From IMG/VR virus record IMGVR_UViG_2541047905_000014: a stretch of 27,260 nt of DNA; one strand, given 5' to 3'. Within the stretch, counting starts at the first letter, position 1, and every line of letters begins with the position of its first letter. The notes beneath the pieces were generated by a model that made no database searches, was not told the origin of the DNA, and saw only the letters and a program-made list of their open reading frames with translations. The DNA comes from a virus (lineage: Duplodnaviria > Heunggongvirae > Uroviricota > Caudoviricetes). The position numbers and the translations under genes were made by a program. Shown piece after piece: positions 4,541-23,089 of this stretch.

Positions 4541-4598
4541 AAAAAGGGCGGCAGAGCAGTCACGGAGTAAAACTGATACCGCCAAATGTCACCAGAAA
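4541..4598 (-). ncRNA. dicF: DicF small RNA (antisense regulator of ftsZ and other targets)
   Basis: Minus-strand sequence TTTCTGGTGACATTTGGCGGTATCAGTTTTACTCCGTGACTGCTCTGCCGCCCTTTTT matches remembered DicF with one substitution, including the GGCGG...CCGCC terminator stem and U-tail. It lies about 180 nt upstream of dicB, as in Qin. Confidence 0.8.
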
Positions 4599-4933: not shown

Positions 4934-5212
4934 ATGGATAAAAAGCAAATTGAGGCCCTGCAATCTATTATTGAAGAACAAGATGAAGCTATCAGGATTC
5001 TTTCATATCGCACTGATATGATACTAAATATGCTTTCTGCATTAACGGCTGCGCTTGGTGGTACAAAAACAAACGTATACCGCGAAGTTGTTATTCAACA
5101 GATAGATAAATTTGAAAAAACCATACCAGGTATTAATGCTCATCTTGCAGAACAAGAGAAAGACCATGCTCTTATGGCAATTTCTTCAGTAGCTCTCCCG
5201 AAAGTTGAGTAG
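4934..5212 (+). CDS. Hypothetical small protein (92 aa), low-GC, antisense to the early-left operon
   Basis: Strong RBS AGGAGGGTGAA immediately before the ATG at 4934. The ORF is markedly AT-rich compared with its flanks. Its 3' end overlaps the convergent 133-aa gene by 41 nt. The six-frame ORF starts at a GTG at 4895 with no RBS. Confidence 0.45.
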   Translation: MDKKQIEALQSIIEEQDEAIRILSYRTDMILNMLSALTAALGGTKTNVYREVVIQQIDKFEKTIPGINAHLAEQEKDHALMAISSVALPKVE

Positions 5213-5573
5213 TTTTAATTGTTGTTTTGAAATAATCACTGCTTTCACATTTGAGTGATTTCATGGCAATCCAAATGCGGGCCTCTGTGCCTGCATTTGG
5301 TTCCAGTTGCTGTAGACGTTTTGCGTCTTCCAAAAGTAAGGCGATAATGTGTTTCAGCTTCTCATCATTTGCTTGATTCTTGTTTTCAGGCGAATTCTGT
5401 CCGCCGAATAGGCGCTTCTCTTCATACAGACCTATAAAGGCACGACGCACGTTACCGGATATAGTATCGATGGTTTCCTTTTCTACAGTACTCAGGTCAA
5501 GAGTCGCCAGTTGAGAGCGAACCACATTCGCTGCCATTTCCTGGAATGGCATTGGTAAATCTTTAAATTCCAT
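5172..5573 (-). CDS. Hypothetical protein (133 aa)
   Basis: ORF in the same orientation as the ydfABC-dicF-dicB operon, with a GAGG RBS 7 nt upstream of the ATG at 5573. No recognisable motif. Confidence 0.6.
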   Translation of the reverse strand: MEFKDLPMPFQEMAANVVRSQLATLDLSTVEKETIDTISGNVRRAFIGLYEEKRLFGGQNSPENKNQANDEKLKHIIALLLEDAKRLQQLEPNAGTEARIWIAMKSLKCESSDYFKTTIKTTQLSGELLKKLP

Positions 5574-5595
5574 TATTAGCCTCGTTGGTTAGCTA

Positions 5596-5814
5596 TTAAC
5601 GTGGGTATGTAACCATTCTGGCAATGCTTAATGCCGCTGCTTTTTCCAGCCTGGTGATATCCTGCTCCAGAGCGGACAGATTTTCAGCCTGCTTAGTCCT
5701 GGCTTCATTGGCCCATTTCAGATCCTGCACTGCATTAATTTTCTGGCGCATCCACTCATAAAGTTCATCATCGGTATAGTCTGGCGCGATGATGACGGGT
5801 TCTCGTTTCTGCAT
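5596..5814 (-). CDS. ydfC: YdfC-like small protein (72 aa)
   Basis: 72-aa ORF with GAGGA RBS. Size and position (third gene of a ydfA-ydfB-ydfC run upstream of dicF/dicB) match Qin from memory. The sequence identity is not verified. Confidence 0.6.
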   Translation of the reverse strand: MQKREPVIIAPDYTDDELYEWMRQKINAVQDLKWANEARTKQAENLSALEQDITRLEKAAALSIARMVTYPR

Positions 5815-5843
5815 ACTGATTCCTCGCGGTGCTGTTTCGCTTA

Positions 5844-5972
5844 TCAGCCGTTAGATTTTCCCGAACTGGAAAGCGCCTGTTTAAATTCACTGAAGCTGAG
5901 AGCTTCTTCGCCTTCGGCAAGACCATCGAAGTATTCTTCGTAAGCCTTTTCCATGATTGTGTCGAAATCCAT
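5844..5972 (-). CDS. ydfB: YdfB-like small acidic protein (42 aa)
   Basis: Not in the ORF track because it is under 60 aa. I translated it by hand: MDFDTIMEKAYEEYFDGLAEGEEALSFSEFKQALSSSGKSNG. GGTGAG RBS-like sequence upstream; 1-nt gap to the upstream ydfA-like stop. Size matches ydfB (42 aa). Confidence 0.55.
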   Translation of the reverse strand: MDFDTIMEKAYEEYFDGLAEGEEALSFSEFKQALSSSGKSNG

Positions 5973-5973
5973 A

Positions 5974-6129
5974 TCACTCACCTGAGTTTCTTTCCAGCCA
6001 GCGACGGGCACCATTTTCGGTTTTAAACGTTTTGCTTTTGGTATACGTCATCGCGGTGAATGTGCCGTCCTGGTTGGGAAACACGCCGTACACCAGAGAT
6101 TCGTTGTTGCCAAGCTCGATAGTATCCAT
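5974..6129 (-). CDS. ydfA: YdfA-like small protein (51 aa, DUF1391-like)
   Basis: Not in the ORF track. Hand translation: MDTIELGNNESLVYGVFPNQDGTFTAMTYTKSKTFKTENGARRWLERNSGS. GAGG RBS 5 nt upstream of the ATG at 6129. Size and first position after the repressor gene match Qin ydfA. Confidence 0.6.
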   Translation of the reverse strand: MDTIELGNNESLVYGVFPNQDGTFTAMTYTKSKTFKTENGARRWLERNSGE

Positions 6130-6326
6130 GCTGACCTCATTTCCCCTTAACGCCGGGTGGCGGAACTAAAACCTACAGCGCCGTGCTGTTCTTGATAGAA
6201 ATATTAGTAATGCGGATATTTTAAGTCAACAGTATGGCGTATGATATTTTTGATTTGGTAACTATGTAAATGTTTTTTCAAGGGAAAAATATTAGTTATA
6301 CAGCTGATTTGCAGAAGTTATGGCAC

Positions 6327-6357
6327 AAAAAAACCGACTAAGACGTCGGTTTTTTTG
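6327..6357. terminator. Bidirectional intrinsic terminator between the repressor gene and the ydfA operon
   Basis: AAAAAAACCGAC-loop-GTCGGTTTTTTT: a GC stem flanked by an A-run on one side and a T-run on the other. It sits 26 nt downstream of the repressor stop on the minus strand. Confidence 0.5.
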
Positions 6358-6382: not shown

Positions 6383-6844
6383 CTACTGGTTACGTTTCTT
6401 TAGTGCCAGCATGTTCTCGAAGGCTTCCTCGTAGAGCTTGTTTAGTCCACGTAGCTGGTTAAGGAGTTTGGCTTTTTCTGACGCAGGTAGAATCTCGAAG
6501 AGGTTAAGTAACTCTGCCTGTTCTTCATTGACCAGCCTCCATCCTTTGCCTGAAAAGTTATCATCATAAGTATCTGATGATCTTACATAATTCATTAAGT
6601 CTTTAAGGTCTTCTCGAATGTCCTCTGGTTTTACCTTTAACAGAGCCGCAAATTTTAGCGCAGCGTCGGTATTTACCGGTATCTTGCCGTTCAGATACTG
6701 GCTAACGGTGCCTTGAGATTCGAATCCCAACAACTCAGCCGCCAGCTCTTGAGTCAGCTTCAGCTCTTTTTTTCTTGCATTCCATGCGGCTTTTAAATTC
6801 TTGCTCGCTTCTGGAGTTGCAATCACTTCGCGTGTTTTTTTCAT
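6383..6844 (-). CDS. HTH (XRE-family) prophage repressor, RacR/DicA-like, no LexA-type peptidase domain
   Basis: 153-aa ORF with an N-terminal helix-turn-helix (LTQELAAELLGFESQGTVSQYLNG). It is divergent from a Cro-like gene across a 107-bp AT-rich intergenic region. The C-terminus has no S24 peptidase motifs. Confidence 0.8.
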   Translation of the reverse strand: MKKTREVIATPEASKNLKAAWNARKKELKLTQELAAELLGFESQGTVSQYLNGKIPVNTDAALKFAALLKVKPEDIREDLKDLMNYVRSSDTYDDNFSGKGWRLVNEEQAELLNLFEILPASEKAKLLNQLRGLNKLYEEAFENMLALKKRNQ

Positions 6845-13955: not shown

Positions 13956-14157
13956 ATACAGCGAACGCCATTGGTTTAGTTGGATATTTACTGTGCCGGA
14001 CAAAAACGGTTTGCGGGGAAATCTTAGTTAAGTAGAATAACTGCGGGTGCTTGAGGCTATCTGTCTCAGGCATGAACACCAAAAGGCAGATAGAGAAAAG
14101 CCCCAGTTAACATTACGCGTCCTGCAAGACGCTTAACATTAATCTGAGGCCATATCT

Positions 14158-14217
14158 ATGCGACACATAGAGATTAGCCTCTTACGGACCGAAAGGTCAA
14201 GGAGAAGCAGGCTATGA
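14158..14217 (+). CDS. mok-like leader ORF, translationally coupled to hok
   Basis: 19-codon ORF whose TGA overlaps the hok ATG (ATGA), as expected for mok/hok coupling. Too short to confirm by sequence alone. Confidence 0.35.
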   Translation: MRHIEISLLRTERSRRSRL

Positions 14218-17435: not shown

Positions 17436-17440
17436 CAAGG

Positions 17441-17468
17441 TTGATTTTTCCGGAATCTGTGGTAAATT
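17441..17468 (+). promoter_or_regulatory. Candidate late promoter PR' (with presumed qut region)
   Basis: TTGATT (17441-17446), 16-nt spacer, TAAATT (17463-17468), located just after the Q stop. Confidence 0.4.
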
Positions 17469-17515
17469 CGTCATAACGATGGGCCTTTTATGCCTGACGT
17501 TAGAAGAGTTTCTAC

Positions 17516-17542
17516 AACCCGCCGCCGAGCGGGTTTTTTATT
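17516..17542 (+). terminator. Intrinsic terminator (tR'-like) about 60 nt downstream of the candidate PR'
   Basis: AACCCGC-CGCCGA-GCGGGTT followed by TTTTTTATT. Confidence 0.6.
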
Positions 17543-17578
17543 GCGGAATTAATTACGGACCGTTATTATTCTGCTCCC

Positions 17579-17654
17579 GGCCCTTTAGCTCAGTGGTGAG
17601 AGCGAGCGACTCATAATCGCCAGGTCGCTGGTTCAAATCCAGCAAGGGCCACCA
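17579..17654 (+). tRNA. ileZ: tRNA with CAU anticodon, ileX/ileZ-like (tRNA-Ile2, lysidine-modified) rather than tRNA-Met
   Basis: Cloverleaf: acceptor GGCCCTT/AAGGGCC, anticodon loop CTCATAA, T-loop GGTTCAAATCC, encoded CCA. Close to E. coli ileX by memory. Confidence 0.85.
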
Positions 17655-17754
17655 TCACAAACCGCCATTAGCTTATCAGGAAGAGCAGACGACGCGATAA
17701 CAGGGTTGTTGGTGCGGGGGCGGGTCCCCGATGGCGGTCCATTATCGGTATTCA

Positions 17755-17828
17755 GCGTTGTTAGCTCAGCCGGACAGAGCAATTGCCTTCTAAGCAATCG
17801 GTCACTGGTTCGAATCCAGTACAGCGCG
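17755..17828 (+). tRNA. argN: tRNA-Arg (UCU anticodon)
   Basis: Acceptor GCGTTGT/ACAGCGC, anticodon stem ATTGC/GCAAT with loop CTTCTAA (anticodon TCT), T-loop GGTTCGAATCC. Confidence 0.85.
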
Positions 17829-17941
17829 CTATATTCATTCTTCCAGATTCCTTCCGGCAGAGCCTTATACTGAAATATACCTGGCTCAGGATATTGTTGA
17901 AAATATTATATGTTTGTCAAAAATAAAAGTTCTGTTAAGTA

Positions 17942-18295
17942 TTGATTGAGTGTTTGTTATACGGTCTAATGGTTTTTTCAGCATTAAATATTTATCATTC
18001 ATATGGTGTGGGTAGAGTGAATATTGATGAGGCGTCGGGGTGTTTCATCCTTAGGCAGCGTATTGATATAGTCAATGCAGCACGAGCAAAGGCCTTCAGC
18101 CGTTTGACAGTTTTGTTCTGTACTCCTGATCGTCTTTCGGGAAGAGACGTTATTATTCTGAATAGTGATGCTATTCAGAGGGTTTGCGATGAGTTCATGG
18201 TTGCTAATTCAGAATTATTTGCTCTTGTTCAGGAGTACAACAGAATAGCCAGGACCTGTGGTATGGATGAACTTCGGATTACTCATCTGGGGTAG
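17942..18295 (+). CDS. Hypothetical protein in the Q-tRNA downstream cargo position
   Basis: ORF in an AT-rich context. The track start is a TTG with no RBS; a GTG at 18016 preceded by GGTGTGGG is a more plausible start (about 92 aa). No motif recognised. Confidence 0.3.
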   Translation: MIECLLYGLMVFSALNIYHSYGVGRVNIDEASGCFILRQRIDIVNAARAKAFSRLTVLFCTPDRLSGRDVIILNSDAIQRVCDEFMVANSELFALVQEYNRIARTCGMDELRITHLG

Positions 18296-18688
18296 ATACA
18301 TATCTGGATTATCACTTGTTACGGTAAAAAGTGATTGCTTACTGTTTTTGTGAGTGGCATTGCAGCAGCCGGATAATGTCAGTGCTGGCTGACGGTGTGC
18401 TGGTGGCGGGTGTGGTGGTTGTTGCTTTCCCGTTGCTGAAAAAGAAAACGCCAGACTGTTAGCCGGGTATCAGTTAGCGGGAGAAATTTTTAAATACTTC
18501 ACAATTCAGGCGGTTGACTGTTGTCTGGTTTGCGGGGAGTTTGTTAAAAGAAACTGGCATGGTGAATCCCCCTGTGCGGAGGGGCAATCAGCGAGTAGGT
18601 ATATGGGATAATCGCGGATTCAGGTGCTGGTACTGAATTCACCGGGAGGCACCCGGCACCATGCAATGGCACATAGCGCCACTCTCCA

Positions 18689-18725
18689 GCCCCTCTCCGG
18701 AGGGGCTGTTTATATTGATTTTGTC
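18689..18725 (+). terminator. Intrinsic terminator closing a roughly 400-bp ORF-free, GC-richer segment
   Basis: GCCCCTC-TCCG-GAGGGGC followed by TGTTTATATTGATTTTGTC. Confidence 0.5.
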
Positions 18726-18742
18726 AGATGTGAGTAAACTCC

Positions 18743-19078
18743 TTATGGACTTTGTTGTTTTAGTCCATAAGGACATATTTGCAGAGTGCAACGGTTATTA
18801 AAGCATTCATTCAATACGTTATCTGTATTTGTAGGACATTCCTGGCTGTTTTTGATTAAATTCCAGAATGTTTTATTGAATGGTGCTACGTTGTAAATGG
18901 TTACAGGTAGCACTTTGTTATTGAGCATGATACCTGTGTGAGTCAGTGTAAATATACTTTCAGGAGGTAAGAAAGCATCCGATTGATACCAGATTATTAA
19001 TTTTATTTTACTCCATATGACTGAAAAAGATATTCCGCATGATGGCTGGATAACTGTATCAATCACAATCCACTTCAT
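18743..19078 (-). CDS. Hypothetical Cys-containing protein (111 aa), AT-rich, antisense to the late operon
   Basis: AAGGAAA RBS 5 nt before the ATG at 19078. Low GC. An 11-bp perfect inverted repeat (CCTTATGGACT...AGTCCATAAGG, 18741-18775) overlaps its stop codon. Confidence 0.45.
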
Positions 19079-19338
19079 TTAGTTTCCTTGTTTATGTCTT
19101 GCTGGTGATGTTCTGAAAAGTATAAATGATATTTTTGAATGTAAACCATAGAGCAGAATTATTTTTCTGATGTTGTTTATTGTTTATTTAAATGCAGGGT
19201 GGTTTATATCTCGTCTTGTAGTTTATCCATGCATATCTGCTTGATGATGAGGTTTTTATTTAAGGTATGGTTTTGTGTTTTTTCTGTATTACATGTCAGG
19301 TATTTTAAAGAATTATTTTTCAGATGGTGGAAAGAACC

Positions 19339-21300
19339 ATGGCATTTAAACACTATGATGTTGTCAGGGCGGCATCGCCGTCAGACCTTGCGAAACGACT
19401 GACACAAAAACTGAAGGAGGGGTGGCAGCCATTTGGCAGTCCGGTGGCCATCACGCCTTATACCCTGATGCAGGCCATTGCGGCGGAAGGTGATGTCACC
19501 ACACCTGTGGTGGTGAAGCCGTCGGATGGAGAAGGCGCAGTTATCAGCACCACCAGCAACCCGGAGTATTACTTTGTTGTTGCCCTGGCCGGGCAGTCAA
19601 ACGGTATGGCGTATGGTGAAGGGCTTCCGCTGCCGGAGACATATGACCGTCCGGACCCGCGTATTAAACAGCTGGCGCGTCGCAGCACTGTCACGCCGGG
19701 TGGTGCGTCCTGTAACTACAATGACATTATTCCTGCGGACCACTGCCTGCATGATGTTCAGGATTTGAGTAAGTTTTCACACCCGAAAGCCAGCGCAGCT
19801 CAGTATGGATGCGTGGGGCAGGGATTACATATCGCGAAGAAATTGTTGCCGTTTATTCCGGCGAATGCCGGTATTCTTCTGGTTCCGTGCTGCCGTGGTG
19901 GTTCTGCATTTTTGGCGGGCGATGAAGGTACCTTCAGCGAATCCACCGGCGCAAGCGAGACCTCGGCACGCTGGGGTGTTGATAAGCCACTGTACAAGGA
20001 CCTGCTTACCCGTACTCAGGCCGCACTGAAGGCCAACCCTAAAAATATTCTGCTTGCAGTGGTCTGGATGCAGGGCGAGTTTGATTTGAAACAGGGTGCA
20101 TACGCCACTCAGCCGGGGCTGTTTGATTCCATGGTGGAAAAATATCGTTCTGACCTGTCGGAATTCGGAGGTCAGTGTCTCGGGGGCTCTCCGTCATCGG
20201 TTCCCTGGATTTGTGGCGACACGACCTACTACTGGAAGCAGACTTATTCTTCGCAATACGATGCGGTGTATGGTGCATACAAGACGAAATCCGCAAAAAA
20301 AATCTTCTTTGTGCCGTTTATGACGGATGAAAACGGGCGAAATGTGGGTACCAACGAGCCGTCAGAAGATCCGGATGTTGCGGATATTGGGTATTACGGA
20401 GCCGGTGGTCGAACGGACGCCAAAACCTGGACGACGGCCGACCGTAAAACGCATTTTGGATCATGGGCACGTCGTGGGATTATTTCCGACCGTCTGGCAA
20501 CGGCGATTCTTGTGCATGCCGGGAGAAACGCTGAATTCATTACCGGAAAACAGCCTGATACGGTGAAGCCCACCGGACCTTCCGGTGAAGGTACGGAGAG
20601 AGAGCCGGAAGCCCCGGTCAGTAACCGAACCCTGATGAGTCTGCTGGCGTCCGGCGAAGACCTGGCATCACAGGGCTGGCGCTATTATCACAAACCGGCG
20701 AGCGGAGACAATGTTAACAAAAACATTGCTGAAGCGGTGGTCAGTGATGCGGGGGCTACGGGAGGTAAGGCCCTGCAACTGAATAAACCGGAAAACCACA
20801 TCTGGTTTCTGGAGCATGATGCAGCCGGACAGGGAGTGGAGTTACTGAAGAAGGGGGGACGTGTGAGCGTACGGTTTAAGTTGCCGGGTTCACTGGTGCC
20901 GAATCAGTTTGCCCTGGGCATTTACTGGCAGTTGTCGTCCCTGCCGGAGGGAGTGACGCTGGCAGAGGAAGGCAACGACATGCTGATGTCCTTCTTTCTG
21001 CAGACGGATGCGACGAACCTGAACGCGATGCACCACAAGAAGCCGAATGCGAAGCTGGAAACGTTCGGGGTCTTTGATAACGGATGGCACACACTGGCTT
21101 TTGAGTTTGCCGGAAACAACAGCATTCAGGTGACGCCGGTACTGGATGAGAAACGGGGGACGCCGTTCACACTGGTGAAATCTCCGGCATCAGGGGCGGC
21201 GGACAAACTGCAACTGACAGGCATATCAAAGGCGGCGACATATACGCTGCTGATTGACAGTGTGAAGGTGGAAGTGAACAACGCGGACATCGCGGCATGA
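19339..21300 (+). CDS. nanS: Prophage sialate O-acetylesterase NanS-p (DUF1737 N-terminal domain plus SASA/SGNH esterase)
   Basis: N-terminus MAFKHYDVVRAASPSDLAKRL (DUF1737-like) and the catalytic-serine block VVALAGQSNGMAYGEG (GQSN motif). Size and position downstream of Q-tRNA match nanS-p of EHEC prophages. ATG at 19339 follows GGTGG; the track start at 19324 has no RBS. Confidence 0.85.
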   Translation: MAFKHYDVVRAASPSDLAKRLTQKLKEGWQPFGSPVAITPYTLMQAIAAEGDVTTPVVVKPSDGEGAVISTTSNPEYYFVVALAGQSNGMAYGEGLPLPETYDRPDPRIKQLARRSTVTPGGASCNYNDIIPADHCLHDVQDLSKFSHPKASAAQYGCVGQGLHIAKKLLPFIPANAGILLVPCCRGGSAFLAGDEGTFSESTGASETSARWGVDKPLYKDLLTRTQAALKANPKNILLAVVWMQGEFDLKQGAYATQPGLFDSMVEKYRSDLSEFGGQCLGGSPSSVPWICGDTTYYWKQTYSSQYDAVYGAYKTKSAKKIFFVPFMTDENGRNVGTNEPSEDPDVADIGYYGAGGRTDAKTWTTADRKTHFGSWARRGIISDRLATAILVHAGRNAEFITGKQPDTVKPTGPSGEGTEREPEAPVSNRTLMSLLASGEDLASQGWRYYHKPASGDNVNKNIAEAVVSDAGATGGKALQLNKPENHIWFLEHDAAGQGVELLKKGGRVSVRFKLPGSLVPNQFALGIYWQLSSLPEGVTLAEEGNDMLMSFFLQTDATNLNAMHHKKPNAKLETFGVFDNGWHTLAFEFAGNNSIQVTPVLDEKRGTPFTLVKSPASGAADKLQLTGISKAATYTLLIDSVKVEVNNADIAA

Positions 21301-22194: not shown

Positions 22195-22198
22195 AGTG

Positions 22199-23089
22199 AT
22201 GAATAAAAAATATGAACTGGTTGTTAAGGGGATAAATAATTACGGGGATAAGGTTACTGTTACTGTGAAGCCGGAAGGTGACGGGCAAGCGTCGCTGTTG
22301 TTGCCAGATGTGGCGATTAGTCTTGACCGTACTGAAGGTGCCACGCTGGAGTTTTACGAAGCTGAGGCGAAAAAGCAGGCGAAGCAGTTTTTCATGGATG
22401 TTGCTGCCGGGTTATGTGAATGGAACGAACCGTTGCCGGAAAAGCGCCCCGTAATTTTAGAGGCGCAGGATGTGTTGATAACCTACAAAGGAAAGCTACC
22501 GGGAAGAATTACTTGTTCTCTGAAGATGCCGCCGTCAACACTGCGGTCAGAAAAAGATGATGTTGAATCACGTATTGAAAAACTGGAGAGCTACGTCGTT
22601 GAGCTGAATAAGAAATGGTCGATATTGGTGCCTTCTGGCGATGAAAAGCAGTTTGCTGCGTTTGACGATTATTGTCGGAAAGTGATGAGCAGAAATCTCG
22701 CAGAGTGTTTCAGTATTCATAATGATAATTTCAGTGAGCTGGAATGGGAGTGTAACCGGCCATCCTTTGTTGTATCCGGTGATGCTGGGAAAATAACCAT
22801 CTCAGAAAATGGGAAAGTAACACCTCCATCGCACCAGCACAGTGAGGAGCTCATTGAATTTGCCATTGATTACCTGAAGAACAATAAAAAGCAGGGGCTG
22901 ATGAAGCGCGTTGGCCGTTGCATGGGATATCTTCAGGTAGCCGCTGAGATTGAAGCGCTGGCCAGTGGTGCTGATAAGGATGCAATTGTGCGGGAGGCTC
23001 TTCTTCGTGATTTTAATACTCCACCCTTTAAAAAAGTGCCGGCTTACTGGCTTCATCCGGGGCTGACTTATCTTAAAGTGCGTATTTAG
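22199..23089 (+). CDS. Hypothetical protein (296 aa) inserted between holin and endolysin
   Basis: ORF begins 4 nt after the holin stop and ends 36 nt before the endolysin. Moderately AT-rich. No catalytic motif recognised. Position is analogous to ydfR in Qin, but this gene is about three times longer. Confidence 0.65.
   Translation: MNKKYELVVKGINNYGDKVTVTVKPEGDGQASLLLPDVAISLDRTEGATLEFYEAEAKKQAKQFFMDVAAGLCEWNEPLPEKRPVILEAQDVLITYKGKLPGRITCSLKMPPSTLRSEKDDVESRIEKLESYVVELNKKWSILVPSGDEKQFAAFDDYCRKVMSRNLAECFSIHNDNFSELEWECNRPSFVVSGDAGKITISENGKVTPPSHQHSEELIEFAIDYLKNNKKQGLMKRVGRCMGYLQVAAEIEALASGADKDAIVREALLRDFNTPPFKKVPAYWLHPGLTYLKVRI

Follow-up and report, generated by a model that had tools for sequence, protein, structure and literature searches.

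What takes the place of stxAB in a lambdoid prophage that has the late-operon layout of a Shiga toxin (Stx) phage and no toxin genes? We asked this of a 27,260-nt stretch of Caudoviricetes DNA (IMG/VR record IMGVR_UViG_2541047905_000014; hereafter the window), in which a 1,508-bp segment, 17831-19338, separates the tRNA genes of the late-operon leader from nanS-p. An original prediction, made from the letters alone, had called this segment an uncharacterised module and the likeliest place in the window for an undescribed function. We found otherwise. The segment is already known: it is the described combination of iraL, an anti-adaptor gene, and STnc100, a small RNA (sRNA; Rfam RF02076), joined by a decayed tciB (DUF3927) and one small conserved gene. 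It is thus a common unit of known parts, and the sole part without an assigned function is an open reading frame (ORF) of 92 amino acids (aa) that belongs to PHROG 2873 (ORF92). We are confident, if not certain, that what lies here is moron cargo in the late-operon leader of a non-Stx lambdoid prophage, assembled as a mosaic from four elements and essentially the unit of the potB prophage of Escherichia coli CFT073. The 92-aa gene, the tciB remnant and STnc100 with its terminator all lie on the plus strand, and iraL on the minus strand, convergent with the sRNA (Table 1).

The minus-strand gene is iraL, the orthologue of the characterised CFT073 IraL. An AT-rich ORF of 111 aa on the opposite strand had been predicted at 18743-19078 and is present, with AAGGA ahead of its start. 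Its product scored 162.4 bits (E 4e-48) against NCBIfam NF007393 (IraM; cut-off 121), residues 1-110 aligning with profile positions 1-113 of 114. It matched the IraM chain of PDB entry 8twd at E 2e-32 and is identical to CFT073 IraL at 110 of 111 residues, the difference being A65, which is V in CFT073. At 90% identity or more, iraL was found in 1,446 of 5,426 complete E. coli genomes. K-12 IraM (YcgW), a PhoPQ-induced anti-adaptor, falls in the same NCBIfam family and is 63% identical over its full length, with the cysteines retained. The K-12 gene is set apart by its regulatory region and by its place in the chromosome, beside icdC and e14.

CFT073 IraL, named by Hryckowian et al. (2014, mBio), is an RssB anti-adaptor that stabilises RpoS; both its binding to RssB and its transcription start, mapped by rapid amplification of cDNA ends (5'RACE), have been published (PMC4045071). 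According to the same work, IraM touches both domains of RssB and answers to Mg2+ starvation, while IraL touches the N-terminal domain alone and works in log phase (PMC4045071). We found the published 5'RACE sequence, ACATCACCAGCAAGGCATAAACAAGGAAACCA, on the minus strand of the window with two mismatches, which places the start at 19111, downstream of a TATACT -10 element. Over 306 nt aligned around the start of iraL (267 nt upstream and the first 39 nt of coding sequence) the window is 99% identical to CFT073, with three base changes around the start site and untranslated region (UTR). The prediction that this gene is an independently transcribed moron was therefore borne out in so far as iraL has its own promoter, conserved with CFT073. 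The two genes agree in length, promoter, 5'RACE start, Shine-Dalgarno (SD) sequence and position in the prophage, between STnc100 and the nanS-p/DUF1737 gene. The prophages differ in that CFT073 has a truncated nanS-p and an IS200 after Q, whereas nanS-p is intact in the window. By its near identity to the CFT073 protein, window IraL would be expected to bind RssB and to stabilise RpoS against ClpXP.

An inverted repeat of 11 bp had been noted at 18741-18775; the repeat is there, with perfect 12-nt arms at 18740-18751 and 18762-18773. [quoted passage not shown] As a side observation on the K-12 relative, iraM of MG1655 (L004, 1211413-1212003) lies just outside the annotated e14 prophage, directly after the icdC remnant; the IraL paper places it 'on e14' (PMC4045071). 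The 11-kb K-12 stretch around iraM gave no Rfam call at all, for STnc100 or any other family.

We turn to the plus strand, where a structured noncoding RNA ending at a terminator had been proposed for 18300-18690. Covariance search and folding of the region to 18725 upheld the RNA and narrowed its extent: a full-length match to RF02076 (model positions 1-206; 132.4 bits against a gathering score of 47; E 2.4e-30) identifies the stretch 18528-18717 as STnc100. This match, like that of iraL to its family, is well outside what chance would give. The intrinsic terminator expected at 18689-18725 was found by a terminator scan as a stem at 18687-18708 followed by the U-tract TTTATATT. As a single sequence the RNA folds at -74.6 kcal/mol (z -2.26), modestly better than shuffles, and among six copies from different phages 7 of the 35 consensus pairs show compensatory double changes. 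We rejected a coding role inside STnc100, because the longest ORFs within it agree from copy to copy in neither frame nor length nor sequence. The NCBI Prokaryotic Genome Annotation Pipeline (PGAP) calls a pseudogene on the minus strand of an identical record (L001 6717-6842; window 18547-18672), partial and labelled 'hypothetical protein', wholly inside STnc100; because it overlies the RNA, it is probably an annotation artefact.

The window variant of STnc100 or its close relatives occurred in 2,860 genomes, at up to 12 places per genome, and relatives have been detected as RNA, with Hfq bound to them, in enterohaemorrhagic and enteropathogenic E. coli (PMC5331693, PMC12711010, bioRxiv 10.64898/2026.05.13.724894). 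The 11 copies of EDL933 are transcribed, one of them verified by northern blot (PMC5331693). The Hfq-bound sRNA EcOnc27/sRNA103, encoded downstream of stx2B, partly overlaps STnc100 (PMC12711010), and STnc100 is present in vesicles of Shiga toxin-producing E. coli (PMC12370729). [quoted passage not shown] The window copy shares with these RNAs the full-length covariance match, the helices, the terminator and the late-region place upstream of nanS-p. By homology to the EDL933 and Sakai copies (PMC5331693, PMC12711010), a discrete Hfq-binding transcript may be expected from this prophage. Alignment of copies with 80 nt of upstream DNA revealed two invariant motifs, TCACAATTC and TTG(T/C)CTG...TTGT(T/A)AAAA, either of which could be part of the STnc100 promoter; the candidate elements in the window are TCACAAT at 18490-18496 and TTGTCT-N18-TAAAAG at 18521-18550.

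The genes that precede STnc100 vary from phage to phage: stx2AB in Sp5, the Stx2 prophage of O157 Sakai; tciAB in JLK-2012 and 640R1; a TerB/TolA-like gene with ORF92 in L006; and ORF92 in L010. Two copies are present in each of 640R1, L006 and L010, each directly after a different small cargo cassette, and mEp460 and JLK-2012 diverge from the window directly after the invariant core (...CACCATGC). Together, the breakpoints and the paired copies suggest a second role for the sRNA gene as a recombination junction, or homology patch, at which cargo is exchanged; Zhu et al. already propose something similar. The copies might then be portable 3' boundaries for the exchange of cassettes, stxAB included. 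Taken further, STnc100 would be mainly a cis-acting boundary and terminator, an insulator in lysogens and a homology patch for moron swaps, with the RNA as a by-product. The unrelated cargo ahead of the copies, their doubling and the position of the breakpoints all favour such a view, and the literature on homologous copies has established no function for the family. We nevertheless think it improbable that this is the main role. The helices keep pairing by compensatory changes, which recombination homology alone does not require, and Hfq binding, RIL-seq chimeras with mRNAs and discrete northern bands are on record for relatives (PMC5331693, PMC12711010, bioRxiv 10.64898/2026.05.13.724894). 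A cis-acting boundary and a trans-acting regulator are not mutually exclusive.

Upstream of STnc100, the stretch 18300-18690 had been taken for ORF-free. It is not: a 43-aa ORF scores 95.6 bits on Pfam DUF3927 (PF13064; gathering score 25) and matches PHROG 1470, 'TciB-like'. Intact TciB homologues have 50-54 aa and an N-terminal hydrophobic helix, whereas the window ORF keeps only the second transmembrane helix and carries 11 unrelated residues in place of about 22 N-terminal ones. DNA homology to tciB of JLK-2012 begins at 18363 and runs at 93% identity over the C-terminal half of DUF3927. A net 20-nt deletion puts the ancestral tciB start (ACGGTAAAAA) out of frame, and the present GTG start is therefore secondary. 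We found no intact two-helix TciB with a native start overlapping tciA, and tciA is absent from the window segment; in JLK-2012, L014 and L021 a TerB-like tciA precedes tciB. The 43-aa ORF thus reads as a decayed tciB remnant, one that resembles the tciA-tciB cassette of these phages in its C-terminal half, and in that ORF92 homologues stand directly upstream in other phages, and differs from it in lacking tciA, the first transmembrane helix and the original start. A literature search on TciA and TciB found no paper testing them, only unrelated ones on Trypanosoma; their 'tellurite', 'colicin' and 'cell-division' names come from annotation only.

Next to the tRNAs, a gene of 92-117 aa had been considered possible at 17942-18295. 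The ORF exists and contains a conserved gene, of which only the 92-aa form from the GTG at 18017 is conserved; the 108- and 117-aa readings, from 17969 or 17942, add N-terminal extensions without conservation. Homologues at 57-63% identity use the same GTG start, and their N-terminal extensions differ or are replaced by an insertion sequence (IS). In one lineage (L006 3762-4990; L007-L009) an IS3-family element lies directly upstream of the ORF92 homologue; it takes the place of the extension and does not touch the 92-aa core, a point in favour of the shorter start. The GTG is kept in three lineages, and three homologues have an SD sequence ahead of it.

These three lineages are 68-70% identical in DNA, without insertions or deletions, and differ at 43 third positions against 19-24 at first and second positions. 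The pairwise ratio of nonsynonymous to synonymous substitution rates (dN/dS) is 0.22-0.32, which indicates purifying selection; a ratio near 1 had been named as a sign that the ORFs of the segment do not code. The protein matches PHROG 2873 over profile positions 1-108 of 108 (E 3.8e-70). Its homologues, at 21-63% identity, have about 91-106 aa, and a profile search of 1.8 billion representatives returned only 21 proteins, the full-length ones all of 91-106 aa. R23, P37, N64, Y74 and N75 are invariant in the family alignment. AlphaFold2 predicted a two-helix hairpin with the conserved TPDR loop (mean predicted local distance difference test score 84). We conclude from these patterns that the 92-aa ORF is a real gene.

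That conclusion bears on a second alternative, in which recombination left 17831-18527 behind as decaying filler without function and the ORF is open by chance. PGAP has no feature at 17831-18330 in the identical record (L001), in CFT073 or among the matches listed from the 1,186 complete genomes that carry the stretch; the neighbouring DUF3927 gene shows clear decay, as does the middle one of the tRNAs by its degenerate form, and the SD sequence of the window copy is weak. Chance and decay would scarcely leave the frame open without insertions or deletions in three lineages at this divergence and dN/dS, nor have relatives at 21-40% identity keep its length and invariant residues; moreover, homologues have good SD sequences and the AlphaFold2 fold is confident. 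We regard this alternative as very unlikely and continue to read ORF92 as a gene.

What the protein does is harder to say. It had no match in Pfam, NCBIfam, PADLOC, PDB or BFVD, and Pfam searches with distant ORF92 relatives gave sub-threshold noise only. A Foldseek search of the model against PDB and BFVD returned generic helical hairpins and coiled coils, none at E <= 0.3. GapR/UPF0335 (DUF2312) was considered and rejected: the PDB profile reached E 0.05-0.25 over the first helix only, Pfam DUF2312 did not match, and hhalign with a GapR sequence gave a probability of 16%. Gene order offers another clue. In L021 and L022 it reads Q, AraC-like, ORF92, TerB-like, DUF3927, holin, and in L014-L016 Q is likewise followed by ORF92, TerB-like, DUF3927 and holin, without the AraC-like gene. 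ORF92 may be the first gene, missed by RefSeq, of a late-region cassette (ORF92, the TerB-like TciA and the DUF3927 TciB) in several enterobacterial phage lineages, perhaps with an unrecognised role, although we find this proposal rather doubtful. It could regulate the membrane-stress pair or work together with it, or it could benefit the lysogen. In the AT-rich stretch upstream we also noticed a sigma-70-like site on the plus strand at 17897-17924 (TTGAAA-N16-AAAAAT, 9 of 12 matches), which might give the gene expression independent of Q; such sites were no commoner in the scan than in shuffles.

How are these parts distributed? Many E. coli chromosomes contain the 1,508-bp segment at 100% identity, and 863 of the 5,426 complete genomes have at least 80% of it. 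The potB prophage of CFT073, where PGAP lists Q, IS200, tRNAs, DUF3927, an IraM-like gene and a DUF1737 fragment, matches window 17537-19395 at 97.4% identity. The segment is a nearly invariant, common unit in E. coli. No record in the phage collection carried 80% or more of the segment, the best being vB_EcoS-640R1 (65%) and mEp460_ev081 (55%), and the unit is therefore a mosaic. Sharing with the window is limited to 17800-18665 in mEp460 and to 18363-18673 in JLK-2012, and in 640R1 to 18363-18710 and from 18499 onward. Base composition varies along the segment as had been described, with a GC-richer block at 18300-18700 (GC fraction 0.46-0.56) against 0.30-0.35 in the flanks and the AT-rich iraL ORF.

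Also very unlikely is that stxAB has been replaced by a coherent, undescribed module, be it a toxin, a defence or a virulence system of a new kind: the 92-aa protein does lack a database match, is under purifying selection and is repeatedly linked to TerB-like and DUF3927 genes, but the parts have separate histories and mosaic breakpoints (in mEp460, JLK-2012 and 640R1), two of the four are known entities and one a broken remnant, PADLOC models of anti-phage defence matched none of the three proteins at E <= 0.01, and independent assortment of the four elements among prophages has largely been seen already.

Table 1. Features of the segment and of the surrounding late-operon scaffold; coordinates are window positions unless another record is named.
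Feature	Coordinates	Strand	Evidence
Q late antiterminator, 273 aa	16614-17435	+	Pfam PF03589 Antiterm, E 2.2e-54
Short leader with presumed PR' promoter, as far as tR'	17436-17543	+	Terminator from scan, promoter read from sequence
tRNA, anticodon CAT	17579-17654	+	ARAGORN; Rfam tRNA, 72.5 bits; PGAP tRNA-Ile
Degenerate argN-type tRNA, pseudo-tRNA	17662-17738	+	Alignment to CFT073 and Sp5 argN
tRNA-Arg(TCT), argO-type	17755-17829	+	ARAGORN; Rfam, 68 bits
92-aa protein gene, helical hairpin predicted, PHROG 2873	18017 (GTG)-18295	+	PHROG profile, dN/dS
43-aa DUF3927/TciB-like ORF, 5'-truncated frame-shifted remnant	18331-18462	+	Pfam PF13064; PHROG 1470
STnc100-family sRNA including intrinsic terminator, 190 nt (relatives EcOnc27, sRNA103, PasD)	18528-18717	+	Rfam RF02076
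Perfect 12-bp hairpin across last iraL codons and stop	18740-18773	-	Repeat search
iraL, 111-aa RssB anti-adaptor (IraM/IraL/RssC family)	18743-19078	-	NCBIfam NF007393; identity to CFT073 IraL
iraL 5'UTR of 33 nt (SD AAGGA), start 19111, sigma-70 promoter with -10 TATACT	19079-19160	-	5'RACE match
nanS-p-type sialate O-acetylesterase, 658 aa	19324-21300	+	Pfam DUF1737, SASA, DUF6645
Paired STnc100 copies in other records	L003 4165-4358 and 4634-4822; L006 2344-2556 and 5650-5839; L010 5352-5547 and 5612-5718		

The scaffold around the segment is that of Stx phages, as had been proposed and as comparison with Sp5 shows: Q, a presumed PR', tRNA-Ile2, tRNA-Arg and nanS-p are all present. We took Q, labelled 'antitermination protein' by PGAP in the identical record, as the start marker of the late-operon scaffold, and nanS-p as its downstream anchor (PGAP start 19339; label 'SASA family carbohydrate esterase'). 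The terminator scan found tR' as a stem at 17516-17535 followed by a T-run. Ahead of it, TTGATT-N16-TGgTAAATT is a candidate for the PR' promoter, with 8 of 12 matches, and was not called by the promoter scan. A match to the Rfam family Trp_leader at 17436-17542 (25 bits against a gathering score of 41) was dismissed as chance similarity of a terminator-containing leader. The tRNA with anticodon CAT is identical to Sp5 ileZ in alignment and is the ileZ-type tRNA-Ile2 of Stx-phage scaffolds. The argN-type element after it, called by neither ARAGORN nor Rfam, retains the acceptor and T arms, and its D and anticodon region is rearranged relative to the CFT073 tRNA-Arg (45.5 bits) and Sp5 argN; because the anticodon arm is scrambled, we class it as a pseudo-tRNA.

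The original prediction was also right that no stx-like ORF is present. Searches of the whole window by tblastn with Sp5 Stx2A and Stx2B gave a best E of 0.35, which is noise, and blastn of the window against Sp5 skipped stx2AB, leaving Sp5 5108-6348 without a match. The two prophages are alike in the order tRNAs, cargo slot, STnc100, minus-strand element, nanS-p. In Sp5, STnc100 lies at 6423-6628, 75 nt after stx2B, and is followed by AsxR on the minus strand and then by nanS-p. They differ in what fills the slots. The strict stxAB slot of the window, 17831-18527, holds ORF92 and the tciB remnant; iraL stands where Sp5 has the minus-strand anti-sRNA AsxR; and the window copy of STnc100, with its shorter variable loop, follows the DUF3927 remnant rather than stx2B. 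The ileZ-argN-argO block of Sp5 is common to both, with the argN-type gene degenerate in the window, and Q has 144 aa in Sp5 as opposed to the longer PF03589 protein here.

By analogy with the lambdoid paradigm, PR' transcripts would end at tR' in the lysogen, so that the plus-strand late genes would be largely silent. If CFT073 is a guide, iraL would be transcribed in the lysogen from its own sigma-70 promoter. IraL would bind RssB's N-terminal domain, as shown for the 99%-identical CFT073 protein, so that RpoS would not be delivered to ClpXP and would accumulate in exponential growth. STnc100 would build up as a separate RNA with its 3' end at the terminator, and would bind Hfq and pair with mRNAs, as its relatives do. 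On induction, again following the lambdoid paradigm, Q-modified polymerase would co-transcribe the tRNAs and the 92-aa gene and would run through two terminators, tR' and that of STnc100, to reach nanS-p and the lysis genes.

Several observations weigh against this picture or parts of it. STnc100 scores 132 bits in the window as compared with 208 for the Sp5 copy; the window variant is shorter, with a deletion in the variable loop, and its targets may therefore differ. The two conserved motifs upstream of it are compatible with different start sites. The SD sequence of the window copy of the 92-aa gene is weak (GGGT), and PGAP calls the gene in none of the records examined. Finally, the 43-aa DUF3927 ORF, which we treat as a remnant, could be translated as a single-pass peptide.

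Overall there is little here that is new: a known iraL, a catalogued STnc100 and one conserved 92-aa family without known function. The analysis does place the layout precisely against an Stx2 phage, with ORF92 and the tciB remnant standing for stx2AB and iraL for AsxR. It also points to a selected gene that RefSeq leaves unannotated, both in the identical record and CFT073 and among the matches listed from the 1,186 genomes. On our reading, the toxin slot and the DNA next to it serve, in a non-Stx prophage that is widespread, to carry a regulatory RNA and a host-physiology moron, iraL, that would raise RpoS in growing cells.

Elsewhere in the window we noted a 297-aa ORF on the plus strand between holin and lysozyme (22196-23089). 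Its first ~100 residues match DUF1327/YdfR (E 3e-40), the other ~195 have no Pfam family match, and PGAP labels the identical DNA a truncated YdfR pseudogene. Two known prophage RNAs are also present: DicF at 4546-4597 on the minus strand (77 bits), and sok at 14045-14216 on the plus strand (107 bits), next to hokD.

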